A stretch of DNA of 41,485 nucleotides from a virus, in UHGV virus genome UHGV-0203597, one strand, 5' to 3'. The number at the start of each line of letters is the position of its first letter. The first letter of the stretch is position 1. Of the stretch, positions 1,560 through 25,543 are shown piece by piece. A model generated the notes under the pieces. That model did no database searches. It saw only the letters and a list, made by a program, of their open reading frames with translations, and had not been told where the DNA came from. The translations under genes and the position numbers were made by a program.

Positions 1560-1574
1560 TTACCTTTAAGGTAA
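1560..1574. promoter_or_regulatory. TTACC-N5-GGTAA operator-like palindrome
   Basis: ttacctttaaggtaa, 43 nt upstream of the minus-strand ATG at 1517. Confidence 0.45.
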
Positions 1575-1640
1575 TATTACGCGAATCTACATCACATCGC
1601 CAATGATTATTTTAAAGGCACATCCCTGTGCCGCCGCTCG

Positions 1641-2336
1641 TCAGAAGAACCCTGCCTTGTCGTTGATGTACTCCGCGTGGGTCTGGATATCACGCAGGCA
1701 TTTGCTCACACCGACGATGTAGCAGAACATGGTGGTCAGCTCCGCCGCCGCGCCCGATACGTCGTGCCCGTCTTCCTGTAACTGGTTCAGCAGATTCATC
1801 AGCAGTGAGTTCTCCGTCAGGCCGAGAACACCAGACGGCGAGTGAATCAAACTGCGGTAGCCGGGCTTCAGTGGGGCGCTGTAGGTTTTGTTCTCTATCT
1901 TCATTGCCTGCATCACTGCTGATGCTGTGGCGTTGGCTACCTGGTCGGCAACCATCTTTATGCGTTCTTCCTGCGGGAGCGAGTTTTTAATGTAACTTCC
2001 GGTGCGGCGGATCTGAGGAAGAACCTCACCTGTAACCCATTTACGAAAGCGGTAGGGGATAGTGCCTGGTGTCACTGCGTCGCGGCAGCGGAGGATCAGT
2101 GTGTAGAGGCCTGACTCGGAGATGATGATCGATTCTTGCTCACCGCCAGGGGTGTCGGTTGAAGCGACGCCCTTCTCATCATCATCAAGTTTTCGAACAG
2201 CATCTCGATGGTTTGCTATGCCTATAGCCCGACAAACATCTGAAGCGATAAACCATGGCTCACCATTTATGACGATTACTCGTATATCGGCTTGGGATTC
2301 GAAAGAAAAAATGGACGTGCTTTTTGTAGCTGTCAT
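1641..2336 (-). CDS. BRO-N domain antirepressor-like protein with Ant-type C-terminal domain
   Basis: 231 aa; N-terminal motif PWFIASDVCRAIGI typical of BRO-N; C-terminal ~70 aa paralogous to the small protein at 3805-4062. Confidence 0.75.
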   Translation of the reverse strand: MTATKSTSIFSFESQADIRVIVINGEPWFIASDVCRAIGIANHRDAVRKLDDDEKGVASTDTPGGEQESIIISESGLYTLILRCRDAVTPGTIPYRFRKWVTGEVLPQIRRTGSYIKNSLPQEERIKMVADQVANATASAVMQAMKIENKTYSAPLKPGYRSLIHSPSGVLGLTENSLLMNLLNQLQEDGHDVSGAAAELTTMFCYIVGVSKCLRDIQTHAEYINDKAGFF

Positions 2337-2605
2337 AGTGGTTACCTTTTAGTCTGGTTAATCACCACTACCGACGCCAATCGGTTGGTGGTGAACTGTG
2401 CAGGGTTGGCGTAACCGGCTAAAAGGACCCGGCGCACCTTTCGGTGCCCCCACACAGCCCACCATAATACGAATGTGGCCGTGCTATACGCATAAAAAAA
2501 CCGCTTGCGCGGTGAATGCGCCTTTTAGTAATCCGGAACGCCAATCCCGGCACTGGATTTTGCCAGTGCCCGATTACTATGGCACAAGAGGAGTGCAATG
2601 TAAAT

Positions 2606-2620
2606 TTACCGCAAAGGTAA
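2606..2620. promoter_or_regulatory. TTACC-N5-GGTAA operator-like palindrome
   Basis: ttaccgcaaaggtaa in the 420-bp divergent intergenic region between the BRO-N gene and 2758-3285. Confidence 0.45.
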
Positions 2621-2730
2621 TGATAAATGCATAACTCACGTCATTTCAACCCTATGTGGTTTGATTGATCCCATTTCAGAAAATACCTGCCTATTTTTTT
2701 GCCAGTGAGCGTATACTTTCGATAGAATGT

Positions 2731-2745
2731 TTACCCTAAAGGTAG
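2731..2745. promoter_or_regulatory. TTACC-N5-GGTAg operator-like site (one mismatch)
   Basis: ttaccctaaaggtag, 13 nt upstream of the ATG at 2758. Confidence 0.35.
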
Positions 2746-2757
2746 TTGGGGGTGCCC

Positions 2758-3285
2758 ATGAACACGAAGAGAGTTACAGCGATGAGGCATAGACGCTTTG
2801 CCTTGAAAAGGCCTGAAAAAGAAAAAGAGCAAGAGATGGTGATTGAAGCAGCCGCTTATGCTGCAGCTATGGCAACTGCTGATGCGATTAGAAATTATGA
2901 AGAAGAGGATAATAAAAATTCCTATCGCATTTACTTATATGAGAGCCGTCACAGTGTTACAGACCATGAAGCATGCCTAAAAAAACAAGGGGAAGTATTC
3001 CACTGCAACCTTGCTGAGTACATTAGGAATGAAATGGAAAGGAATTTGGCTTTATCTCATTTTGGATACAAGAGTCAGGAAAGTGGTTTCGCTGGCTTTA
3101 AGGATAAAATTAACGAAAGGTGGCAACGTTTATACAAGCCACTTCAAGTTGATGAGAAAACTCATCAACTTGTTATGCATGAGGTCCCAAAGATGTCCGT
3201 AGAGAAATCCCATGCAATCTCGCGCAGGATGTTTGCACGCACTGCTGAAGACATGGCTCAGGAGCTCTACGACGATGCCGAATAA
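2758..3285 (+). CDS. Hypothetical charged helical protein, putative partner of YafO-like paralog 2
   Basis: 176 aa from ATG 2758 (alternative 2746); acidic C-terminus ELYDDAE; stop overlaps start of downstream toxin-like gene; unrelated to the 108-aa partner. Confidence 0.4.
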   Translation: MNTKRVTAMRHRRFALKRPEKEKEQEMVIEAAAYAAAMATADAIRNYEEEDNKNSYRIYLYESRHSVTDHEACLKKQGEVFHCNLAEYIRNEMERNLALSHFGYKSQESGFAGFKDKINERWQRLYKPLQVDEKTHQLVMHEVPKMSVEKSHAISRRMFARTAEDMAQELYDDAE

Positions 3286-3781
3286 ATTCCAGGGGTTGGT
3301 TCACCCTGGAATTTTTGGGAAGGACCCTGAGCTAATACCTATCAAAAACGCGTTCATAGATCACTGGCGCTACGGTCATCATAAGGATTTCGGAAAGGAC
3401 ACTCTGTTTCGAGATCCACCGAAAGAGATGCTGGAATATCACATACGCCACGTTCACTTAAACATCGGAAACTATACTGACAAGTTTGGTGAGAGCGGTA
3501 CGGAACAATGCTGGAAAAACTGGGCGTCTGGGAAGAAAGACAAGACCACTAACAAGCATAAAAAGATCCCAACCAGTGACGTGTATGTGATTTATCTGGT
3601 CACATCTGAACGCCATGCCTTCCTTCTGGATTATTGGGATGAACCAGCGCATAAGACAGTAGAAATTGACGAGCAGAAGCAAAAATTAGTTGTCGAGTGT
3701 GACAGAATTTTGCGGCTGAAAAAGTTAGAATCCATGCCGCGCGATGCAAGTTTGTGGGACCCAGAATTTTACGACTGTTAA
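3275..3781 (+). CDS. YafO-family toxin-like protein (paralog 2)
   Basis: 168 aa from MPNKF; motifs HWRYGHHKDFGKDTLF, RHVHLNIG, YVIY, AFLLDYWDEPAH align with paralog 1. Confidence 0.5.
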   Translation: MPNKFQGLVHPGIFGKDPELIPIKNAFIDHWRYGHHKDFGKDTLFRDPPKEMLEYHIRHVHLNIGNYTDKFGESGTEQCWKNWASGKKDKTTNKHKKIPTSDVYVIYLVTSERHAFLLDYWDEPAHKTVEIDEQKQKLVVECDRILRLKKLESMPRDASLWDPEFYDC

Positions 3782-3782
3782 T

Positions 3783-3808
3783 GGCCGCTTTCGCGGCCTT
3801 TTCTTTAT
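3783..3808. terminator. Bidirectional terminator hairpin GGCCGC-TTTC-GCGGCC plus T-tract (second copy)
   Basis: Same 18-mer as 427-444; between convergent genes ending at 3781 and 3805. Confidence 0.6.
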
Positions 3809-4062
3809 GTGGTTTGTTTTCGTAATTGTTCGGCACAATAGTCGAGATGTGTTTGCAGATCCTGCATAGACATCTGTGAGCTGGTGACGTAGTTAATCAG
3901 TGCAGTCAGTTCGGCAAGTGGGCCATCGACATTAAATCCATCCTTATCGAGATCCCGGAGTAATTTCATCAAGTGCGATCCCTCCACCAGTGACCTGACG
4001 CCTCCCGGCGTGTGAATCCTTTCGGTAAATCCGTCTTCCAGTGGATAGTGATACTGCTGCAT
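3805..4062 (-). CDS. Small Ant C-terminal-domain-like protein; candidate SOS-inducible antirepressor
   Basis: 85 aa from ATG 4062 (GGAGAAG RBS); paralogous to the C-terminus of the BRO-N protein; LexA box about 20 nt upstream. Confidence 0.5.
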   Translation of the reverse strand: MQQYHYPLEDGFTERIHTPGGVRSLVEGSHLMKLLRDLDKDGFNVDGPLAELTALINYVTSSQMSMQDLQTHLDYCAEQLRKQTT

Positions 4063-4081
4063 CTTATCTTCTCCATGCAAT

Positions 4082-4101
4082 AACTGTATATTTATACAGT
4101 A
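4082..4101. promoter_or_regulatory. LexA (SOS) box
   Basis: aaCTGTatatttatACAGta; minus-strand reading TACTGTATAAATATACAGTT matches consensus TACTGTATATATATACAGTA at 18/20. Confidence 0.6.
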
Positions 4102-4138
4102 GCAAATAATTTGTTTGCTATCCAGCACGTTTTGCAAA

Positions 4139-4153
4139 TTACCTGAAAGGTAA
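4139..4153. promoter_or_regulatory. TTACC-N5-GGTAA operator-like palindrome
   Basis: ttacctgaaaggtaa, identical to the site at 25529; between the LexA-box gene (minus) and the tailspike (plus). Confidence 0.45.
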
Positions 4154-4257
4154 TATCTATTCGTATTTACAGCCTTTCTATCCATATGTGGTTTTCCAGG
4201 TAATAGAATAACCAGATATGCGGCGCAACGGGTGCTGCGACTATCTGGAGATTTAAC

Positions 4258-6909
4258 ATGACGGTCTCAACCGAAGTTGACCACAACGAATACACCGGTA
4301 ACGGAGCTACGACATCATTTCCGTATACCTTCCGTATTTTCAAAAAATCCGACCTGGTTGTTCAGGTGTCTGACCTGAACGGGAACGTAACAGAATTGGT
4401 TCTGGATACTGACTACACAGTAACCAATGCTGGAGGATATAATGGCGGTAATGTAATTCTGTCGAAGGCGTTGGCTAACGGTTATCATATTTCTATATCA
4501 CGAGAGCTCCCGGTTACGCAGGATACTGATTTGCGTAATCAGGGTAAGTTCTTCGCTGAGGTACATGAAGACGCGTTCGATAAACTGACAATGCTTATTC
4601 AAAAGTGTTTTTCATGGATGAGGTTAGCACTTATAAAACCAAGCATTCTGGCTAACTATTATGATGCAAAAAATAATAAGATATCAAATCTAGCAAATGC
4701 CACTGACAGAAACGATGCTGTCAATAAAGGTTATGTTGATGATCTTTTTACTGGAGGTGTAACGCCTACACCTAACAGCGCTAAAAACGATATTTTTACA
4801 AATCACCAAAGAAAGATTGTAGCTACGATGCCGCTTCTTTTTCCTGAATATGATGCGATTATGGCTGCTAACCCGTCAGCAACTTATATGTATCCTCAAG
4901 GATTCTGCGTTAGCGAAGATTTGATATACATCACTTATCCATTTGAGCCTAAACAGACGAATAATGTCGTCGCAGTATTTAACATATCTGGTATTTATCA
5001 AGGTTATTTCTATGTTCAGGCTGGCGGCCCAGGCTTCGCTGCTGAAGGAATCGTGGTTACGTCAGACTATGGCCCCAAAAAAATGTTTGTTGGTCACACA
5101 AACGGAATACTGCGTGAATTTAATATGGAGGGGGCATTATACGGAAGCAATCTGCCTCTTGTACAAAACCATGATGTTGGATTATTCAACCAGTTCAGCT
5201 ACAGAAGAGGTATATGGCTCGTTGAGCAGAATGCGCCAGAAGTAGGACAGAAAATCACAAGAACTGTACTTGCAGTGTTCGACAGTGGTTTCAATCGCCT
5301 GTCAACTATAACGCTGCCGTTACATGATGTTGGGTATGTAACTAAAAGCACCTCACCTTATGCGCCTTATTTCAACAAGCGTCAGGGTATTGCGGTAGGT
5401 GATAACTACTTTGTCTGCGGCTATGGCGGCTTCATAGCTGATGGGGCAGGAAGCGCAGGATATAACGAATATCAGGGCAGCAAAGTTTTTAACCCTGACG
5501 GTACAAAGCGAACTGAATCAATGCTTCATCCTCAGGCCATGATGGATTTAATGAAAGCCGCAGGATTGAACGTCACTCGCATAGAAAATGAAGGCGTTTG
5601 TGTTTCTCAGGATGGAAAATCCATTTATTCACTTTACATTCATCAGGAAAGAACTGGCTCTGAACCTTACAATTCAGGTTTGGTTATTTTCGAAGATTTC
5701 TCCACTGATAAAGATGCTATCGATTTTACACCTGCATCCAGGCTTTACCGCGGATTTGATATCGATCACGCGAGCATTGGGGTATATCCCCGTAGTGCGA
5801 AGGGGATTGTTAACCCTGTAGATGGTACGTTGTTCACTAACATGACTGAAATTCTTCGCTATATGCAGGAGATGAGTCAGAAGGCATTTAATTTTTACAC
5901 AGGGACTGTCAGCATTGCTGATATATCTGGCGTGGCAATCCCTTCCAGCACATATGTTGAAATACTGAATGCGAATAATCAGACTTTTATAGTCAACTAT
6001 TATTCATCTGATAGTGGCATTAGTTATTTGGTTGCAACTAATCCTTCTGGTGACTTTGTATTTGTGCGCCAGCGACCGGCACAGTGGGCATCTAACTTAA
6101 CCATTCAGCAAAACGCAGATCCTGATACAAACCAATTAAACCGCATCACTGCATCATCATATGCCGGTGCAACTACAAACTCTCAGAAAATATTGGTCCT
6201 TGACCAGCAGGCTACAGCTAGCGCAAATAGCTTGGTATTGGGCGGTAGTTCTTCTGTGTTTAGGTCTGCCACCACGGTGGATATTGCATGCAACAGCGAC
6301 CCGACAGCATTGGGAGGAACCATACGCTGGCGGTTTTATGATACAGGTCTTCGCCCGTTTGCTGACAATACCTATAATTTTGGTCAGGCATCGTTTCGTA
6401 TTAAAGACGCCTACTTTGCAAATGCCCCAACCGTTTCATCAGATGCCACGCTGAAAACCAATCCCGAGGCAATATCAGATTTAAGTGAAATGCTTTCTTC
6501 TGATAGAGACAGCATTCTTGATGCCTGGGGCGATATTTCTGTTGTGGCGTATCGATGGCTCGACGCTATATCCATGAAGGGCGATGGTGCCAGATGGCAT
6601 TTTGGCGTCATGGCTCAGCAGGTAAGGGATGTATTCTTGGCGCACGGAATTGATGGAACCAGATTTGGCCTTCTTTGCTATGACGAGTGGGATGATATTT
6701 TTGAGCCGGTAATCGCGACTAAAGAGATTACCGATACGTCTGGTGAGTTGGTCACCGTCGAATATGACACCGGAGAACAGAGGCTGGTTAAAAAAGCGGG
6801 TAGTTCATGGGGTATACGGCCTGACCAGTGCGCTTGGCTTGAGGCTGCATATCAGCGCCGTCGATGCGATCGTATTGAAGAGCGACTCGAACTATTGGAA
6901 TCAAAATAA
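4258..6909 (+). CDS. Tailspike / tail fibre with T7 gp17-like N-terminal domain and C-terminal S74 intramolecular chaperone
   Basis: 883 aa; N-terminus resembles T7-type fibre anchor; C-terminus has RWHFGVMAQQV and GLLCYDEWDD recalled as S74 auto-processing chaperone motifs; central domain unassigned. Confidence 0.8.
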   Translation: MTVSTEVDHNEYTGNGATTSFPYTFRIFKKSDLVVQVSDLNGNVTELVLDTDYTVTNAGGYNGGNVILSKALANGYHISISRELPVTQDTDLRNQGKFFAEVHEDAFDKLTMLIQKCFSWMRLALIKPSILANYYDAKNNKISNLANATDRNDAVNKGYVDDLFTGGVTPTPNSAKNDIFTNHQRKIVATMPLLFPEYDAIMAANPSATYMYPQGFCVSEDLIYITYPFEPKQTNNVVAVFNISGIYQGYFYVQAGGPGFAAEGIVVTSDYGPKKMFVGHTNGILREFNMEGALYGSNLPLVQNHDVGLFNQFSYRRGIWLVEQNAPEVGQKITRTVLAVFDSGFNRLSTITLPLHDVGYVTKSTSPYAPYFNKRQGIAVGDNYFVCGYGGFIADGAGSAGYNEYQGSKVFNPDGTKRTESMLHPQAMMDLMKAAGLNVTRIENEGVCVSQDGKSIYSLYIHQERTGSEPYNSGLVIFEDFSTDKDAIDFTPASRLYRGFDIDHASIGVYPRSAKGIVNPVDGTLFTNMTEILRYMQEMSQKAFNFYTGTVSIADISGVAIPSSTYVEILNANNQTFIVNYYSSDSGISYLVATNPSGDFVFVRQRPAQWASNLTIQQNADPDTNQLNRITASSYAGATTNSQKILVLDQQATASANSLVLGGSSSVFRSATTVDIACNSDPTALGGTIRWRFYDTGLRPFADNTYNFGQASFRIKDAYFANAPTVSSDATLKTNPEAISDLSEMLSSDRDSILDAWGDISVVAYRWLDAISMKGDGARWHFGVMAQQVRDVFLAHGIDGTRFGLLCYDEWDDIFEPVIATKEITDTSGELVTVEYDTGEQRLVKKAGSSWGIRPDQCAWLEAAYQRRRCDRIEERLELLESK

Positions 6910-6997
6910 GACCAAATTTAGGTAATTATTATCCGTAAATGGTTTATTGTGTATGATGGACCTCATCTTCTAAGGGGGTTTTTATGCACAATAAACG

Positions 6998-7408
6998 GTG
7001 GTTACCATGAATGGCACGGTTACGGCGGATTCACTGAATCAAGGGTTAAGCTTGGGTGCGCTGGCCTCTGTCGTCTACGGCGTTCCGCCAGAGGTGGCTC
7101 TCGGTGCTCTGGCTGGTGCGGTAATATTTGTTACCTCTGCTGTAGAGTATCCTGTTCGTCGTCGTGTACTCTTGTCGATACTCAGCTTTCTTTGTGGTCT
7201 TCTCTTTTACAAACCAACAACATCAATTCTTATCGGAATAGCCAGCATGATACCTACCATCACGCAGGACTCTTTCGAGAAAGGGATTGTTTTCTCTGCT
7301 GGCGCATTCGTGTCAGCAATTGTCGCAGTGCGAATTGGTATATGGCTCTATCACCGTTCTGATAATCCACGCCAGTTAATTCCTGGGAGAAAAGGCGATG
7401 GTAACTAA
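6998..7408 (+). CDS. Multi-pass membrane protein, holin-like (about 4 TM segments)
   Basis: 136 aa hydrophobic; directly upstream of second holin-like gene and endolysin; start ambiguous (6998 or 7007). Confidence 0.45.
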   Translation: MVTMNGTVTADSLNQGLSLGALASVVYGVPPEVALGALAGAVIFVTSAVEYPVRRRVLLSILSFLCGLLFYKPTTSILIGIASMIPTITQDSFEKGIVFSAGAFVSAIVAVRIGIWLYHRSDNPRQLIPGRKGDGN

Positions 7409-7706
7409 TGAGCTTGTTTTGCTTATCACCAATGCAATTATTTGTACTGGCATAGCAATTCGCGTTGTCACATTCCGGCGTAACGGCTCTCAACATCGAA
7501 GATGGGGAGGGTGGCTTGCTTATTTCCTTATTGTTGCTGCGGCCAGTATTCCTGTTCGTGTCGCCTATGCAATCTGGTTACGTACGCCAATGGCTGTGGA
7601 TTTATCTGAGGTCATTATCAACGCTGTCATGCTTGCCGCGGTTATTAAAACACGCGGTAACGTTGTTCAGATTTTCAAAACATCGAGGTCTAAACATGGA
7701 GATTAA
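7398..7706 (+). CDS. Holin-like membrane protein (about 3 TM segments, charged C-terminus)
   Basis: 102 aa; overlaps endolysin start by 11 nt. Confidence 0.5.
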
Positions 7707-8325
7707 ACAATTCCAGCGAGCTGCTGGTATTAGCGAGGCTCTGGCCGCACGCTGGTTCTCGCATATAACTTCTGCGATGAAAGAGTTTGGTATCAGAAAA
7801 CCCGAAGATCAGGCAATGTTTATTGCTCAGGTCGGGCATGAGTCTGGTGGCTTCACCAGGTTGCAGGAGAATTTCAATTACAGCGTCACCGGACTGGCTA
7901 ACTTCGTTCGTGCCGGTCGTCTTACTCAGGGACAGGCTAACGCATTGGGTCGTCGTGCAGGCGAGCCACCATTGCCACCTGAGCGCCAGCGTGCGATTGC
8001 CAATCTGGTGTACAGCAAACGCATGGGGAACAATGCCTCTGGTGATGGCTGGAATTACCGTGGCCGCGGACTTATCCAGATTACCGGTTTGAATAACTAT
8101 CGTGATTGCGGAAACGGCCTGAAAGTGGACCTGCTGGAGAATCCTGAACTGTTGGCGCAGGACGAATACGCGGCTCGTAGCGCGGCGTGGTTCTTCTCCA
8201 GCAAAGGTTGCATGAAGTATACCGGCGATATTGCACGTGTAACTCTGATTATCAATGGTGGCAGGAATGGCATCGACGACCGGCGCGTGCGGTACATCAC
8301 TGCCAGTAAGGTGCTGGCGGTATGA
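7696..8325 (+). CDS. Endolysin, glycoside hydrolase family 19 (chitinase-like) type
   Basis: 210 aa from MEIKQ; motifs [12 protein letters not shown] and [12 protein letters not shown]; no N-terminal SAR segment. Confidence 0.8.
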
Positions 8326-8819: not shown

Positions 8820-8969
8820 TTTCCGGTGACGGTATATAAAACGGTACGGTGAAAATCATGTTACAGAAAGTTGTTACCAGTCAATTGGTTATGCATGCCG
8901 TAAATAATTGAGTGGGAATGATTAACAGCTAACTCATAGCAACTCATTCCTATTCAGATACTAATTTAA

Positions 8970-9000
8970 CCCTCTGTTTTTACAGAGGGTTTTTGTTTTT
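8970..9000 (+). terminator. Rho-independent terminator at the end of the tailspike-lysis unit
   Basis: ccctctg-ttttta-cagaggg followed by tttttgttttt. Confidence 0.7.
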
Positions 9001-9056
9001 ATGTATTCATTTCTATTCACTCTACACCATATTTTTCGTCGGTACAGGTGACGGTA

Positions 9057-9071
9057 TTACCTTAAAGGTAT
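9057..9071. promoter_or_regulatory. TTACC-N5-GGTAt operator-like site upstream of int
   Basis: ttaccttaaaggtat, 43 nt upstream of the int start. Confidence 0.35.
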
Positions 9072-14608: not shown

Positions 14609-14623
14609 TTACCGTTGAGGTAA
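14609..14623. promoter_or_regulatory. TTACC-N5-GGTAA operator-like palindrome (left operator region)
   Basis: ttaccgttgaggtaa. Confidence 0.5.
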
Positions 14624-14670: not shown

Positions 14671-14685
14671 TTACCCGTTAGGTAA
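14671..14685. promoter_or_regulatory. TTACC-N5-GGTAA operator-like palindrome (left operator region)
   Basis: ttacccgttaggtaa. Confidence 0.5.
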
Positions 14686-14742: not shown

Positions 14743-15327
14743 TTATTGTTTGTTTTTTTCGTTCTGGTTGATGACAAATTCAATGTAACTTTCGATCTTT
14801 GCTTTCTCGGTTTCGGGTAACAATGCGTAGCGTGAGCGGTCATAGTTGATAGTCGCAGGGTCGTGCGGGTGAATCAGTAGTTCATATCCGTGACGCCCGA
14901 ATGCGGATGCAACATTCTCCAGGGTGGAAATGGAAACGCTGACCTCATTGTTTAACAGGCGGCTGATTGTCACCTGGGCGACGCCGGATGCGCGGTGAAG
15001 TTTTCCCTGAGTTGAAAGGTCGCGGCTTTCACTCATCCAGCGTTCCAGGTTGTGAGCTGCCAGCTGACCAATGTCGCTTGGGCCGACAGGCTGAAAACCT
15101 TCCTGAGAAAGCGAGCGATCGATATCAAGCCAGTTACGGGGTTTATTGGCGGCAGCTTCAATTTTTCGCGCAACCTGGTCGCCGATAACCTTCTTGCCAA
15201 GAGCCCAGCGGTTTACCAGATTTGCCTGAGTTCCAAGTTTTTCTGCCATCCGCGTCTGAACACCATTGAATTCACGGTCGATCAAGTCGTTGAGATTTTG
15301 CCTGCGGACGTCCTGGATACTTTTCAT
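14743..15327 (-). CDS. Prophage repressor, two HTH domains, no LexA-like autocleavage domain
   Basis: 194 aa; HTH-like segments near residues 25-45 and 105-130; no Ala-Gly/Ser-Lys protease module; flanked by operator palindromes on both sides. Confidence 0.6.
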   Translation of the reverse strand: MKSIQDVRRQNLNDLIDREFNGVQTRMAEKLGTQANLVNRWALGKKVIGDQVARKIEAAANKPRNWLDIDRSLSQEGFQPVGPSDIGQLAAHNLERWMSESRDLSTQGKLHRASGVAQVTISRLLNNEVSVSISTLENVASAFGRHGYELLIHPHDPATINYDRSRYALLPETEKAKIESYIEFVINQNEKNKQ

Positions 15328-15382: not shown

Positions 15383-15397
15383 TTACCCAACAGGTAA
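15383..15397. promoter_or_regulatory. TTACC-N5-GGTAA operator-like palindrome (right operator region)
   Basis: ttacccaacaggtaa between divergent repressor and cro-like genes. Confidence 0.5.
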
Positions 15398-15430
15398 ATG
15401 CACCCCATAGGTAACTATCCTTGATTTTTG

Positions 15431-15445
15431 TTACCTTATGGGTGA
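15431..15445. promoter_or_regulatory. TTACC-N5-GGTgA operator-like site (right operator region)
   Basis: ttaccttatgggtga, one mismatch. Confidence 0.4.
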
Positions 15446-15481: not shown

Positions 15482-15712
15482 ATGAGCGATAACGGACATT
15501 TCGATTTCAAAAAGCACTGGCTTGCACTTACTCCGGATGAGCGTGAAGCCTTCGCACAGGAAGCCGGAACGACGAGTCACTATATCCAGACTCACTTAAC
15601 AGGTAAGCGCAAAATGCCAGGTAAGGTATTGATGAATGGGCTTTTTAAAGCATGTAAAACAAGACAATGGCTGCGCTCAAAAGCGGAACTGGCATACTTC
15701 TTCTACTCATGA
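15482..15712 (+). CDS. Cro/CII-position small HTH regulator
   Basis: 76 aa; divergent from repressor; HTH-like EAFAQEAGTTSHYIQTHLTGKRK. Confidence 0.5.
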   Translation: MSDNGHFDFKKHWLALTPDEREAFAQEAGTTSHYIQTHLTGKRKMPGKVLMNGLFKACKTRQWLRSKAELAYFFYS

Positions 15713-15734
15713 TATCTGGCAACAACCCTCTGTA

Positions 15735-15758
15735 GACCGCCATCCGGCGGTCTTTTCA
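15735..15758 (+). terminator. Terminator after cro-like gene
   Basis: gaccgcc-atcc-ggcggtc then tttt. Confidence 0.6.
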
Positions 15759-15767
15759 TATCTATTC

Positions 15768-15782
15768 GTACCTCAAAGGTAA
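15768..15782. promoter_or_regulatory. gTACC-N5-GGTAA operator-like site
   Basis: gtacctcaaaggtaa just after the cro terminator. Confidence 0.35.
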
Positions 15783-17707: not shown

Positions 17708-17722
17708 TTACCTGTTAGGTAA
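17708..17722. promoter_or_regulatory. TTACC-N5-GGTAA operator-like palindrome
   Basis: ttacctgttaggtaa. Confidence 0.45.
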
Positions 17723-17769
17723 TAAAATATTCTAAAATCTATTGATTTCGTGTCTTATGTGGTTTTTAA

Positions 17770-17784
17770 TTACCTCAGGGGTAA
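17770..17784. promoter_or_regulatory. TTACC-N5-GGTAA operator-like palindrome overlapping the RBS of 17788
   Basis: ttacctcaggggtaa ends 3 nt before the ATG. Confidence 0.45.
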
Positions 17785-18746: not shown

Positions 18747-18807
18747 ATCGACGATCTTTTTAGTTATCAATGTAATCAATAAGTTATGTGGATAAGCGAG
18801 GGTAAAG

Positions 18808-19245
18808 ATGGAAAGTAATATCAAAGGGTTAGTTTCCGCCGGGCATGAGATGGCTTCGGAACTGAAAGCAGAATGTGGTGCCGTTGATATGCGCAGTGTG
18901 GCAAAGCTGATCAGCGATTTGGCAACGCAGCTGGAAGTGCAACTGGTGCGTGCTAATGCGCTGGCTGCGGAGAATGCGCTGGCTCGTAAAGCAGTTCAGG
19001 CATTTTGCGATGTTGTTGGCGACAGCACCGAGGTTATCTGCGAGGAGATTGGGCGAGATGGCGTTCTGGTTATTTTGGAGGCAATGAAGGCAACAGGAAA
19101 TATGCCAGCCACCGATGCTTTCCTGTCTGAAGTGCGGGCGCAGGGGGTAGAGATGATGCGCGAACATCCATCAATCAAACTTTGTTCTTTGACGCACATA
19201 TGTGATGAGTTAGCCGCCCAGCTTCGCAAAGGAGGCAACCAGTGA
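18808..19245 (+). CDS. Hypothetical protein
   Basis: 145 aa; complete ORF with RBS; possible Ea22-like (low confidence). Confidence 0.4.
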   Translation: MESNIKGLVSAGHEMASELKAECGAVDMRSVAKLISDLATQLEVQLVRANALAAENALARKAVQAFCDVVGDSTEVICEEIGRDGVLVILEAMKATGNMPATDAFLSEVRAQGVEMMREHPSIKLCSLTHICDELAAQLRKGGNQ

Positions 19246-19466
19246 GCGGAAAAAGAATGACTAACAGAGAGCTTGTCGATGCCGCGATTAAGCTTGCTGG
19301 TGATTTTTATTCAATGATGGGGTACACGCATCGCCCAGGCTTCAAATATTGGGAGTCTCCTCACCCGCAAGAGCAACTGGTATTTCAAATGGCCTGCCGT
19401 GCTTTTGAGGTTATTCGCGGTTCTGATGTGATGGACGCCGTTGCCGACTTGGAGGATGAAGAGTGA
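19242..19466 (+). CDS. Hypothetical protein
   Basis: 74 aa; translationally coupled to neighbours. Confidence 0.4.
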   Translation: MSGKRMTNRELVDAAIKLAGDFYSMMGYTHRPGFKYWESPHPQEQLVFQMACRAFEVIRGSDVMDAVADLEDEE

Positions 19467-19822
19467 GCGAGATTAATTATCAGGAAGGGCATGAAAAGGC
19501 AGGGCAGGCAAAACCAGTGGCATGGCGATATCGCTACGTGAAAAAAGGCGTTACAGACTTTCAGGGGAAGCAGTGGGTTGGTGACTGGAAATATGTACCG
19601 ACAAAAGAGGATTGCAACGACAGACCGAACTATGAAATTCAGGCGTTATTCACTGCCCCGCCTGTGCCACTGACACCAGAAGGATTGATTAAAGCAGTGC
19701 GTTTCTATGAACAGGTAAAGCGTGAGAATCCGCCAGTCGAAACCGGAGCATGGAAAGACGCTGTTGACTGGGTGCTCAAAGAGGCTTGCCAGTCTGTAAA
19801 CATTGGCATCAAAGGAGAGTGA
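19463..19822 (+). CDS. Hypothetical protein
   Basis: 119 aa; coupled. Confidence 0.4.
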   Translation: MSEINYQEGHEKAGQAKPVAWRYRYVKKGVTDFQGKQWVGDWKYVPTKEDCNDRPNYEIQALFTAPPVPLTPEGLIKAVRFYEQVKRENPPVETGAWKDAVDWVLKEACQSVNIGIKGE

Positions 19823-19825
19823 GAA

Positions 19826-20316
19826 TGCAAATTTCACCGGTTACTCTTCGTGTTGCGAAGGCGTTTATATCCAGACATCACCGACACAATAACCCCCCGG
19901 TGGGGCATAAATTCAGCATTGGTCTGAGAAATGATGCCGGAGAATTGATAGGTGTGGCGACAGCCGGTCGACCTGTTGCACGACATTTGGATGATGGATT
20001 AACGCTTGAAGTAAATCGCACATGTACCACAGGAGAACGCAACGCTAACAGCGCGCTTTATGGTGCTGTCTGGCGGGCAGCAAAAGCTATGGGTTATCAA
20101 CGTTGTATTACGTACACCCGGGCAGATGAATCAGGAGCATCTCTTCGCGCAGCTGGTTTTGTTCGTGTGAAAGAGCTTCCTCCAAGAAAAAGCTGGGCGG
20201 AATCAAGCGTCGCCCTGCGGAGTAAACGCGATCCAGTCGGAAACGGTGGTGTTCCTCGTGTGCTCTGGGAAATCAGGATAATGAGTACCACTGGTATTCG
20301 CATCAAAGGAGAGTGA
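19826..20316 (+). CDS. Hypothetical protein, possibly acetyltransferase-like fold
   Basis: 163 aa from MQISPV; AAAGGAG RBS; pattern LIGVATAGRP...TYTRADESGASLRAAGF reminiscent of an acyl-CoA N-acyltransferase core (uncertain). Confidence 0.4.
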
Positions 20317-20317
20317 T

Positions 20318-20581
20318 ATGGCAACTTTGACAAAAAAAGAACGGGCATGGTTGAACGAATTACAGGACGTTCTTGATCGCTGCCCATCACCGAAAAAAAT
20401 TGGTTTTTACACCATTGGCGATAAAAGCATTTACCTGTATGACCTGCGCCGCATGGATGAAATCATGGAGGCTCTTGATAATCGTTCGTCGATGGATTGG
20501 TGTGTTGCTGTCCATGATATGAATGCCGGATTTGATGAAAGGATTTTGTTCCCCTCATCAGTTGAAAGCACTGCGGGTTAA
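20318..20581 (+). CDS. Hypothetical protein
   Basis: 87 aa. Confidence 0.4.
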   Translation: MATLTKKERAWLNELQDVLDRCPSPKKIGFYTIGDKSIYLYDLRRMDEIMEALDNRSSMDWCVAVHDMNAGFDERILFPSSVESTAG

Positions 20582-20591
20582 GGAGTAACAC

Positions 20592-21374
20592 ATGACCACT
20601 ATTACCAAAGAACGTATTGAATTGTTCATTAAAAATCCGCTTGAAAACGGGCTTACCCGTGGTGAACAAATGGAACTGGCACGGATTGCGCTGGCATCAC
20701 TGGAAGCAGAACCAGTTGCTTATATTTTCAAACATCCGGCCGGGAAATTATTCTGGGCTTTAACGGATGAAAGCAATAAAGAGCAACCGGACGTTATTCC
20801 TGTTTATGCTGACTCACCTGCGCCGGTTGTGCCGGATGAAATAGACGTAAACGATGTACCAAGGGCGGTGACATATTTCAAGACACACAGAGATTGTTAC
20901 GCAGATGGCTGGAACGCCTGCCGCGCCGCCATGCTTCAGTCCGGAAACTTTCGGGAAAATAAGAATTCGTCAACCAATAATTTTCGGGAAATCGCGGAAA
21001 CGTCAACCAACTATCCGGTAATTCCGGATGGTTTATCCACGGTATGCGCTGAGGCTTATCAGGTTGTAGGAGTTATGGCAGATGCGCTTGGTGTATTCGG
21101 TGATGCAGCAGTACAGAAAGTTCTGGATAACCTGTCACAGCAAAAACTTGTTCACAGAGATGTGCTGCCGTTCTCGCTTCCGGTAACTCCGGATGGTTGG
21201 ATAAGCTGTAGTGATCGAATGCCGAACGACGCGCAGTGGTGCGTAGTGAACACAGAATACGGGTATTACGTGCAATGCTGGTCTGAAGGTCAAGGGTGGC
21301 TTGGTGATGATATCAGCATCCCTAAATGCGATGTAATCAATTGGATGCCTCTACCAGAACCGCCGCAGGGGTGA
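20592..21374 (+). CDS. DUF551-like C-terminal domain protein
   Basis: 260 aa; C-terminal WISCSDRMP...WCVVNTEYGYYVQCW...WMPLPEPP; internal direct repeat 20949-21010. Confidence 0.5.
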   Translation: MTTITKERIELFIKNPLENGLTRGEQMELARIALASLEAEPVAYIFKHPAGKLFWALTDESNKEQPDVIPVYADSPAPVVPDEIDVNDVPRAVTYFKTHRDCYADGWNACRAAMLQSGNFRENKNSSTNNFREIAETSTNYPVIPDGLSTVCAEAYQVVGVMADALGVFGDAAVQKVLDNLSQQKLVHRDVLPFSLPVTPDGWISCSDRMPNDAQWCVVNTEYGYYVQCWSEGQGWLGDDISIPKCDVINWMPLPEPPQG

Positions 21375-21440
21375 AATGATGCTTGGCCTGAAGTATTTTA
21401 TGTAATTGGTATTGCTATATTTTTATCTGGGGATAAACGA

Positions 21441-21683
21441 ATGTTCTCTCTGATTCAACGTGGTCAGATATACACCGATAGCGCTGGCTATCCAGTAAAA
21501 ATCATTCGTAGTACTGATCACTCAGTATTCTTCAAGAGGATGGATGGCTATCCTGGAAGAGTGTGCATCAGAAAATTCAATAATTTATTCGAACACATTG
21601 ATCACAGAGAATATCACCAGATCCTGGCTGAAACAGAACAGGAGAACCATCTGAAAAAATTACGTGCTATGCAAAGGAGATAA
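21441..21683 (+). CDS. Hypothetical protein
   Basis: 80 aa. Confidence 0.4.
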   Translation: MFSLIQRGQIYTDSAGYPVKIIRSTDHSVFFKRMDGYPGRVCIRKFNNLFEHIDHREYHQILAETEQENHLKKLRAMQRR

Positions 21684-21718
21684 ACCGGTAAATGTGTTCG
21701 CGATAAAGGTAAATATTG

Positions 21719-22057
21719 ATGGCTAAATCAGCAGCAGAGCGCAAAGCCGCTCAGAGAGCCAGACAAGCTGCATCTGGTGTGCGTAAGCTGGAAATTGTGC
21801 TTGATGCTCAGGAAATTGAAATGCTGGAGCGTAACTGTGCCACGCGTCGCCCCGGGCGTGCGCCTTACGAATTTGGTGAGTATATAGCGTTACTGATCCG
21901 CCAGGATGATGCACGCGTGCGCGGGCGTATAAAATCGATCAGCAGAAAACGTTGCGGTAAGTGCGGCGAGAGAGTTCCAGTTAATTCATGCCCGTGTAAT
22001 GGTGACTCGCAATGCTGGGTGACCAAAGGCTGGCATGAAACGAAATTAATAGTGTGA
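21719..22057 (+). CDS. Putative regulator with basic N-terminus and C-terminal Cys cluster (candidate late-gene regulator)
   Basis: 112 aa; CGKCGERVPVNSCPCNGDSQC; close upstream of the late operon; stop lies in GTGACATGTCAC. Confidence 0.4.
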   Translation: MAKSAAERKAAQRARQAASGVRKLEIVLDAQEIEMLERNCATRRPGRAPYEFGEYIALLIRQDDARVRGRIKSISRKRCGKCGERVPVNSCPCNGDSQCWVTKGWHETKLIV

Positions 22058-22065
22058 CATGTCAC
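22054..22065. repeat. 12-bp palindrome GTGACATGTCAC, copy 2 of 3
   Basis: Overlaps stop of 21719-22057 and the start region of the next ORF. Confidence 0.5.
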
Positions 22066-22074
22066 GAAGGTGTT

Positions 22075-22287
22075 ATGCCAAAAATACGCTACGACCTTGA
22101 AGATATGAGAGATAACTCAGCAAATTTTCCGAAAGAGGTTAAATTTCTCATGAATAAGTATGGTTGCGCCAGGAGGGATATAGTTATCGACAGTCAGCAC
22201 CCTTGCGGCGAGGATGTAATTTTCATTCGCGGTAAATGGGAATGGTATCTTGACGAGAGTTTTTACGATGAATTTGATGGACTTTGA
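22075..22287 (+). CDS. Hypothetical protein
   Basis: 70 aa from MPKIRYDL (alternative GTG 22054); GAAGGTG RBS. Confidence 0.35.
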   Translation: MPKIRYDLEDMRDNSANFPKEVKFLMNKYGCARRDIVIDSQHPCGEDVIFIRGKWEWYLDESFYDEFDGL

Positions 22288-22292
22288 ATACT

Positions 22293-22319
22293 GCCGCCAA
22301 CTATGGCGGCTTTATTTTG
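22293..22319 (+). terminator. Terminator preceding the terminase operon
   Basis: gccgcc-aactat-ggcggc followed by tttattttg. Confidence 0.6.
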
Positions 22320-22329
22320 CATGGTACTA

Positions 22330-22344
22330 TTACCACAACGGTAA
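22330..22344. promoter_or_regulatory. TTACC-N5-GGTAA operator-like palindrome upstream of terminase
   Basis: ttaccacaacggtaa 18 nt before terS ATG; second imperfect copy at 22348-22362. Confidence 0.45.
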
Positions 22345-22361
22345 CTATTACCACGGTGGTT

Positions 22362-22994
22362 ATGATGCCTGCTGAACCTAAAACCTATAAACGTAAATCA
22401 ACGCAATTTAAGCCACTAACAGCAATGCAGGAGGCTTATTGCCAGTCATACATCAAAACGCCTGAAAACCAGACTCAGGCAGCGATTAACGCAGGATTCT
22501 CCCCAAATACAGCGGCAGTTAAAGCAAGTGTCATGATGCGCGATGAACGCATTCAAAAACGGATTGCCGAGTTGATGGAGGAGCGCAACAAACGAATGCG
22601 CGTCAGTGCTGATTACGTTCTCATGCGCCTGGTGGAGATCGACCAGATGGACGTGCTGGATATACTGAACGATGACGGCGGGATGAAGCCGATCGCTGAA
22701 TGGCCGAAGGTCTGGCGTACCTCTCTCAGTGCTATGGATATCGCTACCATCAAGACAACCCAGGCTTCCCTGCAAAAAGAGAATGGCGAGGCGGATCTCT
22801 CTGTTGAGGATGTCGAGCATATCCTGAAGAAGGTGAAATGGCCTGACAAGGTGAAGAACCTTGAGCTGATTGGTAAGCATGTTGATGTCAACGCATTCAA
22901 AGAACGTCTGGATGTTAATGTGAATGTGACAATTGCTGATCGCATAGCAGCAGCCAGGAAGCGACTCAAAGAACGTCAGGATGGTAATCAGTGA
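22362..22994 (+). CDS. Terminase small subunit
   Basis: 210 aa from MMPAEP; position before large terminase with 4-nt overlap; N-terminal DNA-binding-like region. Confidence 0.6.
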   Translation: MMPAEPKTYKRKSTQFKPLTAMQEAYCQSYIKTPENQTQAAINAGFSPNTAAVKASVMMRDERIQKRIAELMEERNKRMRVSADYVLMRLVEIDQMDVLDILNDDGGMKPIAEWPKVWRTSLSAMDIATIKTTQASLQKENGEADLSVEDVEHILKKVKWPDKVKNLELIGKHVDVNAFKERLDVNVNVTIADRIAAARKRLKERQDGNQ

Positions 22995-24466
22995 CAGATA
23001 CAGCGTTATCTCCTGAAGAGCAGTTAATCGAGGATATTGCAGGGTTCACTCACGATCCGCTTGGCTATGCCCTCTATGCGTTCCCGTGGGGGGAAGATGG
23101 GACTGAACTGGCACATGCCACCGGTCCACGTCAGTGGCAGGCTGATGCGTTCCGAGAGATACGTGATCACCTGCAGAATCCAGAGACGCGCTATCAGCCG
23201 CTTATGCTGGCACGCGCTTCGGGTCACGGTATTGGTAAATCCGCATTCATCTCAATGCTGATCAACTGGGGCATGTCCACTTGCGAGGATTGTAAGGTTG
23301 TGGTGACCGCCAACACCGACAACCAGCTACGAACGAAGACCTGGCCGGAAATTATCAAGTGGTCGAACCTTGCTATCACGAAAGACTGGTTTACCTGTAC
23401 CGCTACCGCGATGTACAGCAATGATCCTGGACACGACAAGCGGTGGCGAGCTGACGCAATACCCTGGTCTGAGCACAACACTGAGGCATTCGCCGGACTA
23501 CACAACGAGCGCAAACGCATCATCGTGGTATTCGATGAAGCGTCGAACATTGCGGATCTGGTGTGGGAAGTTGCCGAGGGTGCGCTAACGGACGAAGACA
23601 CTGAGATTATCTGGGTGGCGTTCGGAAACCCGACGCGTAATACCGGACGTTTCCGCGAATGTTTCCGCAAATATAAACACCGCTGGAAAACTGCGCAGAT
23701 TGACAGCCGGACGGTGGAAGGCACCAACAAACAGCAGTTGCAGAAATGGGTTGATGACTACGGGGAAGACAGCGACTTCGTTAAAATCCGTGTGCGCGGC
23801 ATATTCCCGGATGCATCTGAATTGCAGTTTATCCCTACCGGACTTACTGACGAGGCAATGAAACGGGTGGTCACCGCTGCGCAGGTTGCACATGCTCCGG
23901 TGATAATCGGCGTTGACCCGGCATACTCAGGCGTTGATGACGCTGTGATATACCTGCGGCAGGGGCTGCACAGTAAGGTGCTGTGGACTGGCAACAAGAC
24001 CACTGACGATCTGATTATGGCGAAGCGTATCGCTGACTTTGAAGACCAGTACCAGGCTGACGCAGTGTTCATCGACTTCGGTTACGGAACTGGTCTGAAG
24101 TCAATCGGTGACGGCTGGGGTCGTACATGGCAACTTGTTCCGTTCGGTGGCGCGTCTACTGACCCGCAGATGCTCAACAAGCGTGGGGAGATGTTCAACT
24201 CATGTAAGACATGGCTGAGGCTGGGCGGCATGCTGGATGACCAGGAAACTGCAGACGACCTGTCGGCGGCAGAGTACAAAGTTCGAGTGGACGGTAAAAT
24301 CGTTATCGAACCGAAGGAAGATATCAAAGAGCGACTTGGGCGTTCGCCGGGTAAAGGCGATGCGCTGCTGCTGACGTTTGCTTTCCCGGTGTCGAAGCGC
24401 CTGCGACTTCCCTGGCAGCAGAACCAGCAAGGCAAGGCCATCACAGATTATGACCCGTATGCTTAA
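22991..24466 (+). CDS. Terminase large subunit
   Basis: 491 aa; Walker A-like ASGHGIGKS; nuclease-domain acidic motifs (VIIGVDPA, AVFIDFGYG). Confidence 0.85.
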   Translation: MTDTALSPEEQLIEDIAGFTHDPLGYALYAFPWGEDGTELAHATGPRQWQADAFREIRDHLQNPETRYQPLMLARASGHGIGKSAFISMLINWGMSTCEDCKVVVTANTDNQLRTKTWPEIIKWSNLAITKDWFTCTATAMYSNDPGHDKRWRADAIPWSEHNTEAFAGLHNERKRIIVVFDEASNIADLVWEVAEGALTDEDTEIIWVAFGNPTRNTGRFRECFRKYKHRWKTAQIDSRTVEGTNKQQLQKWVDDYGEDSDFVKIRVRGIFPDASELQFIPTGLTDEAMKRVVTAAQVAHAPVIIGVDPAYSGVDDAVIYLRQGLHSKVLWTGNKTTDDLIMAKRIADFEDQYQADAVFIDFGYGTGLKSIGDGWGRTWQLVPFGGASTDPQMLNKRGEMFNSCKTWLRLGGMLDDQETADDLSAAEYKVRVDGKIVIEPKEDIKERLGRSPGKGDALLLTFAFPVSKRLRLPWQQNQQGKAITDYDPYA

Positions 24467-24523
24467 TCCGCTGGTGGGGATAATGTCGTTGATATCCTCT
24501 GATGAGGATAAAACAAAGCCAGC

Positions 24524-24931
24524 TCATCGGCTGGCTGTTTGTGACATGTCACTGTGTTGTTGCTCGCTTAACTTCTGCTTCAGCAAGTAACCTTCAAGCA
24601 TCCAGATTTTGTTTACAGCATTCTGCCGGGCAATCTTCCGACCAATTTCTGCATCAAAATTTTCCGGACTTGCACAGGCACTCTCTCCGGTGACAGTGAA
24701 GCCATTCTTCAGCACCAGTACGCAGAAAGTGAGAAGGTGCAGAGCATCAGGGGTGGCTTCGACATAAGGCTCCGGATTATAAATAAGGTCATCTTCTTTA
24801 GCCTGGTGATCACCCTGCGCAGCAGTGAAAAAATGCTCACTGCAAATGAGGCCTTCAATTTTCTCAGGTGTTACACGCGGTGCCGTTTTGCCTTTCTCAA
24901 CGATTTCTTTTTCGATTTGCTGGTCGTTCAT
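24524..24931 (-). CDS. Hypothetical protein, antisense to the late operon, downstream of tRNA
   Basis: 135 aa; AAGGTGAG RBS; same strand as tRNA; family not recognised. Confidence 0.5.
   Translation of the reverse strand: MNDQQIEKEIVEKGKTAPRVTPEKIEGLICSEHFFTAAQGDHQAKEDDLIYNPEPYVEATPDALHLLTFCVLVLKNGFTVTGESACASPENFDAEIGRKIARQNAVNKIWMLEGYLLKQKLSEQQHSDMSQTASR
24541..24552. repeat. 12-bp palindrome GTGACATGTCAC, copy 3 of 3
   Basis: Inside the last codons of the minus-strand gene; adjacent to hairpin gccagc-tcatcg-gctggc. Confidence 0.5.
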
Positions 24932-24942
24932 AATCTCACCTT

Positions 24943-24966
24943 AAAAAAATGCCCGGCGAACCGGGC
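24943..24966 (-). terminator. Minus-strand terminator hairpin between tRNA and the 135-aa gene
   Basis: gcccgg-cgaa-ccgggc with T-tract on the minus strand, only about 12 nt upstream of the 135-aa gene ATG. Confidence 0.45.
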
Positions 24967-25052
24967 GAACTGGAAGCAATGAGTTATGCCTTCCGTGGCT
25001 GTACTGGTTTACAGCATGAAGTCATCGCAATGGCGTCCTGCTGTAAAAAGGG

Positions 25053-25095
25053 CGGTGATAGTCCTTCAAGGGAAACCATCACCGCCAAGCCCCTG
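25053..25095 (-). terminator. Long imperfect hairpin terminator directly 3' of the tRNA
   Basis: ggcggtgat...atcaccgcc stem followed on the minus strand by CTTTTT. Confidence 0.45.
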
Positions 25096-25129
25096 GAACT
25101 TCTGGCATCACGGTCCTTAGGCGTGATTC

Positions 25130-25206
25130 TGGCGTGGCATGCAGGATTCGAACCTGCGACCAACCGCTTAGAAGGCGGTTGCTCTGTCCAACTGAGCTAA
25201 TGCCAC
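25130..25206 (-). tRNA. tRNA-Arg (anticodon UCU), phage-encoded variant
   Basis: 77 nt GTGGCATTAGCTCAGTTGGACAGAGCAACCGCCTTCTAAGCGGTTGGTCGCAGGTTCGAATCCTGCATGCCACGCCA; full cloverleaf with 7-bp acceptor stem, GTTCGAATC T-loop, encoded CCA; D and T arms match recalled E. coli argU, acceptor and anticodon stems differ. Confidence 0.85.
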
Positions 25207-25528
25207 AACGCTGAGAGCACTTAGCCTGTTAAGGCGCCACACTTTGTCGCGGCTCCATAAATGCTCTCATCGTTGTACCCTCGTCTCTTCCGAGGCGTCA
25301 CACCGAATCGCCGGGATGGTGAATCCCCGTGCGCGGAATAAAACCGCTCGACTTGCACATTCCGGCTACCTGGTTCGTTTGCCCGAGCAAGGGAGGGTGC
25401 CCCTTAAACGTATCCAGACCGCTATCGGCGCATGTGCCATACGCCGTACTGCTCAAAATAAAAGCTCACTCCACCTGTTCAATTTAACGACAATCCAGTC
25501 AGGTTAGTAACCGGAATGAACTCTTTGG

Positions 25529-25543
25529 TTACCTGAAAGGTAA
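25529..25543. promoter_or_regulatory. TTACC-N5-GGTAA operator-like palindrome upstream of portal operon
   Basis: ttacctgaaaggtaa, identical to 4139-4153. Confidence 0.45.

Follow-up and report, generated by a model that had tools for sequence, protein, structure and literature searches.

Dispersed TTACC-N5-GGTAA palindromes as probable operators of a single lysogeny repressor in a phiV10/epsilon15-like prophage

The virus genome UHGV-0203597, analysed here over its full 41,485 nt (the window), is a phiV10/epsilon15-like temperate podovirus of the genus Uetakevirus in which a 15-bp palindrome, TTACC-N5-GGTAA, lies at or adjoins the promoters of essentially every transcription unit, predicted sigma-70 promoters abutting or overlapping its copies. 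We propose that these palindromes are operators of the lysogeny repressor Rep, which would repress each transcription unit directly and so silence the whole prophage, a reading to which we assign a probability of about 0.85. The units that carry the palindrome are the early-left, rep/cro, replication, nin-like, terminase, portal/structural, tailspike plus lysis, integrase and isrK/C4/Bro-N units and two accessory cassettes; since each has its own terminator boundary, promoter and operator, one protein would suffice to silence them all. The first-pass annotation of this DNA had raised the idea of a repressor regulon covering the whole genome, and both our computational tests and the GenBank annotation of epsilon15 support it.

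Dispersed Rep operators of this exact sequence are already known from the epsilon15 record, and Rep and its small antirepressor, Ant, have been characterised in phage SPC32H; the gain here is confirmation and a fuller map, refinements rather than a new mechanism. The map now includes a triplet at the right operator (OR), an integrase site and a proximal nin-like operator, all unannotated in epsilon15, together with a recurring 62-bp plan in which operators stand on both sides of a promoter whose -10 hexamer shares a base with one of them, population-level evidence that the N5 centre is free to vary, and operators on the two accessory cassettes. In this widespread E. coli prophage type a single repressor under antirepressor control probably silences the individual promoters, in place of a lambda-like cascade, and the map may serve promoter and gene-start annotation (for example of the phiV10 terminase small subunit), the prediction of accessory genes that are silent in lysogens, and the engineering of phiV10-type reporter phages.

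An over-represented intergenic palindrome shared across the genus

Exact copies of TTACC-N5-GGTAA number 10 in the window against 0.02 expected from dinucleotide shuffles, and copies with at most one mismatch number 15 against 0.64 expected; no shuffle approached either count. The signal is independent of any advance choice of pattern, for when every 5+5 palindrome with a gap of 0-12 is counted without bias, this one ranks first in the window as well as in four relatives, phiV10, epsilon15, Tyrion and BUCT711. GGTAA follows TTACC ten times at a gap of exactly 5 and only twice at all other gaps up to 30, and the copies in the window are perfect inverted repeats with a variable centre. GGTAA is in itself a common pentamer, with 76 copies on the plus strand of the window.

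On our gene map, in which 7.2% of the window is non-coding, 14 of the 15 sites lie wholly between genes, and the one exception shares a single base with the terminase small subunit ATG (binomial P ~1e-15). RefSeq annotation places 12 of 14 sites between genes in phiV10 (P 5e-13) and 14 of 15 in epsilon15 (P 5e-16). The 15-bp palindrome is a real over-represented intergenic element. A motif search of the window recovered all 14 coordinates listed in the first-pass annotation (10 exact, 4 with one mismatch), and its description of these as intergenic and near gene starts holds, copies with at most one mismatch being not comparably frequent inside genes. The list had overlooked two copies, at 22348 (one mismatch) and 15400 (two mismatches). 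Copies described as single are in fact paired at the nin-like and terminase promoters, and the copies at 4139 and 25529, said to be identical over 16 bp, are identical over 17.

Across most modules the window is 95-98% identical to phiV10 (NC_007804.2), in which 14 copies of the palindrome occur at no more than one mismatch; epsilon15 and Enterobacter phage Tyrion have 15 each, Klebsiella phage BUCT711 has 13, and SPC32H has 15 in its 20.7-kb right part. Corresponding positions in these five phages are the terminase pair, portal, ant/tailspike, integrase, the left operator (OL), OR and the nin-like pair, and position frequencies over six genomes give the consensus aTTACC-N5-GGTAAt. The epsilon15 record (NC_004775 / AY150271) annotates seven 'protein_bind, repressor, lysogeny' features, each of which reads (A)TTACC-N5-GGTAAT, located before terminase, before the portal region, in the gp19/tail fibre gap, at three places left of the repressor gene and at one after the replication genes. 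Left unmarked in that record, though its sequence contains them, are the lysis site, the integrase site, the proximal nin-like operator and the OR cluster. Searches of the literature, whether by the motif string or by descriptions of operators in Uetakevirus, returned no usable mention. The lysis-operon operator carried by phiV10, epsilon15, Tyrion and SPC32H is missing from the window (6909-6998) because the lysis genes directly follow the tailspike gene; no gene for O-antigen modification stands between them, an arrangement also seen in BUCT711.

In alignments of the left promoter (PL), OR, nin-like, portal, ant/tailspike and integrase regions, the half-sites are invariant and the N5 centre differs between genomes; the other invariant blocks are -35/-10 hexamers, terminators and a LexA box. 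At least 300 related contigs appeared in one viral-contig scan, of which the best 80 all encode an identical Rep, and among the matches listed in a viral-contig scan for Reps there were identical Reps only. Among 80 IMG/VR contigs that encode this identical Rep and serve as a population sample, half-site positions have a mean minor-allele fraction of 0.001, compared with 0.116 for N5 and 0.041 for flanking sequence, values that carry a small ascertainment bias from choosing sites at no more than one mismatch; 76-80 of the 80 loci were recovered per site, and the layout of sites relative to the rep gene is constant across the 80 contigs. The half-sites are under strong purifying selection.

Rep and the other candidate binders

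The window's Rep is 100% identical to the phiV10 repressor p40 and is a full-length homologue of SPC32H Rep, whose structure has been solved (PDB 5D50_A, E 4e-42, residues 1-190); by alignment it is 78% identical to the Tyrion, 44% to the BUCT711 and 43% to the epsilon15 protein, and about 42-43% to Salmonella Reps (42% by tblastn). Conservation is highest in the N-terminal domain, where the stretch NLVNRW is invariant among Reps that are 43-78% identical overall. From its position we take NLVNRW to be the recognition helix, whose invariance would explain why one operator sequence is found across the whole genus. At the same spacings the motif recurs in six prophages of Enterobacterales whose genomes encode homologues of Rep. 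A covariation search for Rep relatives with another sequence at the NLVNRW position and another palindrome turned up only distant homologues, of the N-terminal domain alone, in Paraburkholderia, Hydrogenovibrio and Thiomicrospira; their sequence at this position differs, the motif is absent there, and no palindrome recurs around the gene. These motif-less homologues agree weakly with recognition by Rep, the evidence being weak because the elements that carry them are unrelated.

By homology, an SPC32H-type switch is present in the window, comprising Rep, the small antirepressor Ant and predicted LexA control of ant through a box just upstream of it (Table 1). Ant is ~88% identical to its SPC32H counterpart although Rep is only 42-43% identical to Salmonella Reps, and a second antirepressor candidate is the Bro-N protein (1641-2336), the C-terminal part of which matches the same family as Ant (3805-4062); phrog_450 matches both. 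A Pfam search of Rep returned helix-turn-helix families only, with no Peptidase_S24. In SPC32H, loss of LexA from the ant promoter reportedly leads to production of Ant, which then removes Rep, as given in abstracts and secondary citations. Induction here would most likely follow the same route, DNA damage taking LexA off the ant promoter and Ant stripping Rep from DNA. SPC32H Rep is described in secondary literature (PMC9638917, PMC9986798) as binding palindromic DNA sites as a tetramer and being removed by Ant. In an experiment that favours a genome-wide effect, over-expression of the phage ZX5 repressor, which is identical to the window's Rep, cut holin and endolysin transcripts by >99.9% (PMC9782041).

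The alternative that survives best, although we consider it improbable, is that the main binder of the sites is the Cro-like protein, or another conserved regulator such as the gp49-like 'transcriptional regulator' (21716..22057), with Rep at only some of them. The Cro-like protein is 58-84% identical across the genus, contains the invariant stretch AGTTSHYIQ-HLT and matches a phage 'transcriptional repressor' family; the gp49-like protein is conserved as well, and covariation cannot tell either from Rep. In favour of Rep, clusters of sites on either side of the rep gene are typical of a lysogeny repressor, the sites in the epsilon15 record are attributed to the repressor, and the homologous SPC32H Rep is itself reported to bind palindromic sites. 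The first-pass annotation had already noted operators on both sides of the repressor gene, although with two on each side rather than the two at OL and three at OR that we find. The Cro-like protein is a possible second binder of the same sites, and since operators shared between Cro and repressor are the norm in lambdoid phages, its binding would add to repression by Rep and not replace it.

Promoter layout and proposed mode of silencing

The promoters in Table 1 are predicted sigma-70 promoters, called by a scan or assigned by eye. Relative to them, the palindromes fall into three position classes: overlapping the -10/start site (1560, 2606, 2731, 14609, 17770, 22330 and, in part, 9057), inside the -35/spacer region (15431), or ~62 bp upstream of the start site (14671, 17708, 4139 and probably 15768 and 25529). 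PL and the nin-like promoter share a plan that runs from a terminator through the distal operator, 19 bp, the -35 and a -10 that shares 1 nt with the proximal operator. At PL the distal operator (14671) lies just downstream of the rep terminator (14722-14703); at the nin-like promoter 17 bp separate TTGATT from TTTAAT, after which come operator 17770, the ribosome-binding site of gene 17788, which this operator covers, and the ATG. The two operators of each pair are exactly 62 bp apart (~six helical turns) and flank the core promoter, a pairing at ~-62 and +1 that recurs at both promoters in every genome examined, and the conserved blocks there are the -35, the -10 and both operators. Among spacings between neighbouring sites in 11 genomes, 62 bp occurs 18 times, 61 bp once and 63 bp twice, with a further 13 cases of 17-18 bp. 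The AT content of the 47 bp that separate paired sites is 77-79%, against 51% genome-wide.

Table 1. Palindrome copies (predicted operators), predicted promoters and associated features of the window
Feature	Position	Strand	Match	Context
Operator, YafO-like unit 1	1560..1574		exact	43 bp upstream of the start of gene 1191..1517 (minus), first gene of the unit
Promoter at 1560		minus		weak -10 TAATAT, by eye; its last T is the operator's first T
Operator	2606..2620		exact	abuts the -10 of a predicted leftward promoter
Promoter at 2606	-35 2649-2644; -10 2625-2620	leftward		-10 TATCAT; for isrK, C4 RNA and Bro-N antirepressor
Operator, YafO-like unit 2	2731..2745		one mismatch	2 nt downstream of predicted rightward promoter TTGCCA-18-TAGAAT (2699-2728)
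YafO-like unit 2 genes	2758..3285, 3275..3781	plus		under the 2731 promoter
Operator	4139..4153		exact	divergent gap between ant start 4062 (minus) and tailspike start 4258 (plus)
Operator	9057..9071		one mismatch (GGTAT)	57 bp upstream of integrase start 9114
OL proximal operator	14609..14623		exact	first T is the last T of PL -10 AATTAT (14628-14623, minus)
OL distal operator	14671..14685		exact	19 bp upstream of PL -35 TTGACA (14651-14646); 62 bp from 14609
OR operator a	15383..15397		exact	
OR operator b	15400..15414		two mismatches	GCACCCCATAGGTAA; degenerate here
OR operator c	15431..15445		one mismatch	in the -35/spacer region of the predicted right promoter (PR)
PR				conserved TTGATT 15421-15426; scan call TTGTTA 15428-33 with TATTAT 15451-56
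Operator	15768..15782		one mismatch	15 bp after the terminator (15734-15753) that follows the cro-like gene; upstream of replication genes
Promoter at 15768	from 15800			TTGATC-17-CAAAAT, by eye
nin-like distal operator	17708..17722		exact	19 bp upstream of -35 TTGATT (17742-17747); after the replication-operon terminator
nin-like proximal operator	17770..17784		exact	1-nt overlap with -10 TTTAAT (17765-17770); 62 bp from distal operator
Operator	22330..22344		exact	after terminator 22293-22310; conserved TACTAT abuts; upstream of terminase small subunit gene
Operator	22348..22362		one mismatch	18 bp from 22330; covers ribosome-binding site, touches terminase small subunit ATG (22362)
Operator	25529..25543		exact	105 bp upstream of small gene 25634..25840, itself before the portal gene
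Repressor Rep	14743..15327	minus		194 amino acids; between OL and OR clusters
Small antirepressor Ant	3805..4062	minus		homologue of SPC32H Ant (PDB 5D50 chain E, E 1e-47)
LexA box	4084..4099		perfect	CTGTATATTTATACAG; before ant; conserved in five genomes
Cro-like protein	15482..15712	plus		phrog_35 'transcriptional repressor'
Bro-N antirepressor gene	1641..2336			long leader from the 2606 operator/promoter
isrK	2494-2569	minus		72 bits; ends at terminator 2513-2500
C4 antisense RNA	2384-2469	minus		78 bits
tRNA-Arg (anticodon TCT)	25130-25206	minus		between terminase and portal modules

The degenerate OR copy at 15400 aligns with a perfect operator in epsilon15 and BUCT711. The integrase site keeps its GGTAT mismatch throughout the genus; the change produces TATACT, a good -10 hexamer. 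Operator 4139 is ~60-70 bp upstream of both predicted start sites, those of ant and tailspike, and 25529 overlaps a possible leftward promoter identified by eye (TTGACA 25565-25560, a 17-nt spacer, TACCTT), which faces the tRNA-Arg gene and gene 24524..24931. In phiV10 the annotated terminase small subunit start (41; region 41-121) puts both operators (87 and 105) inside the gene, whereas in epsilon15 and Tyrion the gene begins just after the operator pair; the phiV10 start appears to have been set too far upstream, and the true start in the window is probably ATG 22362, with the region 22284-22361 lying upstream of the gene.

In the mechanism that we propose, a two-fold symmetric pair of Rep N-terminal helix-turn-helix domains would bind each palindrome from one side of the helix, the half-site centres being one turn (10 bp) apart, and would leave the 5-bp spacer unread. 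Operators at +1 or in the spacer would block RNA polymerase, and distal operators at ~-62 would add cooperativity, plausibly via a Rep tetramer; the 62-bp spacing of pairs that flank a core promoter suggests cooperative binding by one such tetramer. Almost every transcription unit having its own promoter and operator, control would not run as in lambda, through a cascade that starts at two early promoters. A more speculative reading, which we hold only tentatively, joins three ideas: that a Rep tetramer clamps the 62-bp pairs and closes the ~47-bp AT-rich stretch into a very tight promoter loop; that immunity specificity is set elsewhere than in DNA recognition, for example by Ant matching the Rep C-terminal domain, since the genus shares one operator sequence and one NLVNRW stretch; and that accessory cassettes adapt by acquiring an operator at their own promoter.

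The layout also bears on the other possibility raised in the first-pass annotation, that the palindrome is a shared core-promoter or activator element for an unidentified factor. The sites are near promoters, and several late promoters have a poor -35 and are probably activator-dependent, as this would predict. A motif that occupies three different positions relative to the -35/-10 hexamers (+1, -35/spacer and ~-62) is nevertheless a poor fit to a promoter element and suits an operator, overlap with the -10 and start site suits repression and not activation, and a CATAT-NN-GGTT-type block, described below, is the better late-promoter candidate. We regard the promoter-element explanation as very unlikely.

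Repression of each unit by Rep must itself be weighed against a number of unfavourable points. Matches to the palindrome with two mismatches number 44 in the window against 11.9 expected and lie mostly in coding sequence. The promoters at 1560, 15768, 22330, 25529 and 9057 were assigned by eye and score under the scan threshold, and a lone operator at ~-62, such as 4139, would not by itself block RNA polymerase. The clearest Pfam helix-turn-helix match in Rep is HTH_3 at residues 106-147, the N-terminal domain giving only a weak YdaS-like match, and because there are two helix-turn-helix-like regions, either may, on sequence grounds, be the one that reads TTACC. The Cro-like protein is as well conserved as Rep, so that covariation does not separate the two as binders, and the link between Rep and the sequence comes from GenBank annotation, homology and secondary citations.

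Direct control by Rep would place the window close to some known systems and apart from others. With the epsilon15 sites and SPC32H Rep-Ant (PDB 5D50, 5D4Z) it shares the sequence (A)TTACC-N5-GGTAA(T), the positions at terminase, portal, ant/tailspike, OL and the nin-like promoter, homologous Rep and Ant, and the LexA box at ant; whereas seven sites are marked in epsilon15, the window adds operators on the two accessory cassettes (1560, 2731). As in the CI-Cro systems of lambda, P22 and 434, there are palindromic operators, presumably read by helix-turn-helix dimers, operators over early promoters and three OR sites between divergent repressor and cro-like genes. In contrast to the lambda type, however, the sites span 1560-25529 and about a dozen units, not the immunity region only, and Rep lacks a Pfam match to the S24 self-cleavage family, inactivation by antirepressor being expected instead. 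No sign of an N- or Q-type antitermination cascade turned up in the window, in which no search aimed at one was made.

In phage P1, one repressor, C1, controls many scattered operons and can be induced through an antirepressor route (immI), with a C4 antisense RNA upstream of ant. The window likewise has a C4 RNA upstream of an antirepressor gene, but its sites are symmetric 15-bp palindromes, whereas P1 C1 operators are asymmetric 17-bp sites bound by monomer. Mycobacteriophage L5-type stoperators are numerous repressor sites dispersed in short intergenic gaps, asymmetric and orientation-dependent, that block elongation. The window resembles them in that its probable repressor sites are numerous and scattered genome-wide, mainly between genes, and differs in that these are palindromic and tied to promoter hexamers.

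Accessory cassettes, module borders and other loci

The two accessory cassettes are specific to the window and carry one site each. YafO-like unit 2 (2664-3804) is a 1.1-kb insertion relative to Tyrion and phiV10, which brings its own promoter, operator 2731 and terminator (3783-3798) and lies between copies of an 11-12 bp direct repeat, T(T/A)TGTGGTTTG, corresponding to the 3' end of ant (2652-2663, 3805-3816). Among phage records it occurs only in EC.W1-9, one other phage of the genus, and the phage records searched contained no example of this cassette without the operator in other phage families. The YafO-like proteins (692-1204, 3275-3781) score 19.7 and 17.6 bits against Pfam YafO_toxin, under the curated cutoff of 25, and both belong to phrog_1651, for which no function is known; the 'YafO-like' label of the first-pass annotation should be read with that in mind. 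If these proteins are toxins, operators at their promoters would mean silence in the lysogen, which is unusual for accessory cassettes.

Sites at module borders and on acquired cassettes could also be explained if the palindromes were boundary sequences that promote module exchange by recombination, their promoter proximity being secondary. We think this even less likely than the promoter element, as cassette 2 is bounded by the duplicated end of ant and not by operators, and a 15-bp sequence whose N5 varies freely offers very little length for homologous exchange. Site 2606 was considered as a recombination breakpoint or inversion and rejected; its flanks are collinear with phiV10 and Tyrion, and only N5 has diverged. 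That the palindromes act as RNA hairpins, either terminators or stems that block translation, can be set aside almost entirely, for although 17770, 22348 and 2731 overlap or adjoin ribosome-binding sites, the 15-mers fold weakly (-1.1 to -3.9 kcal/mol each) with no consistent U tract, many of the sites precede the predicted start of transcription, loop sequences vary freely, a terminator scan puts the real terminators beside the sites and not in them, and the stems are invariant among relatives, with no compensatory changes.

Downstream of the leftward promoter at 2606, isrK, the C4 RNA and the Bro-N gene make up a predicted P1 immI-like RNA-controlled antirepressor module, which would be under the Rep operator there. 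The lipoprotein gene (38..415) carries no site, as the first-pass annotation had observed, and it may be expressed in the lysogen. Between the terminase and portal modules, the tRNA-Arg gene is overlapped by an open reading frame on the opposite strand (24949..25200) that corresponds to the phiV10 'hypothetical protein' p04 and is probably not a gene.

Downstream of the portal-proximal operator, a 28-bp block, ATATGTGGTTAAATTGGTAATAATTTAA (25586-25613), shows no variation among five genomes whose identity is otherwise 70-80%. The tailspike promoter (4183-4209) has an invariant related sequence, CATAT-NN-GGTT-N6-GGTAATAGAAT, and ATGTGGTT or TATGGTT-like elements occur 47-59 bp after the operators at the nin-like (17755-17770) and lysis promoters. 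The CATAT-NN-GGTT-type block may be a late-promoter or activator element. ATGTGGTTT, found in 4 copies in the window against 0.44 expected, was considered as a second dispersed regulatory motif and rejected; the copies at 2654 and 3807 are the coding 3' end of ant and its cassette-made duplicate, and the remaining copies may belong to the late-promoter element.

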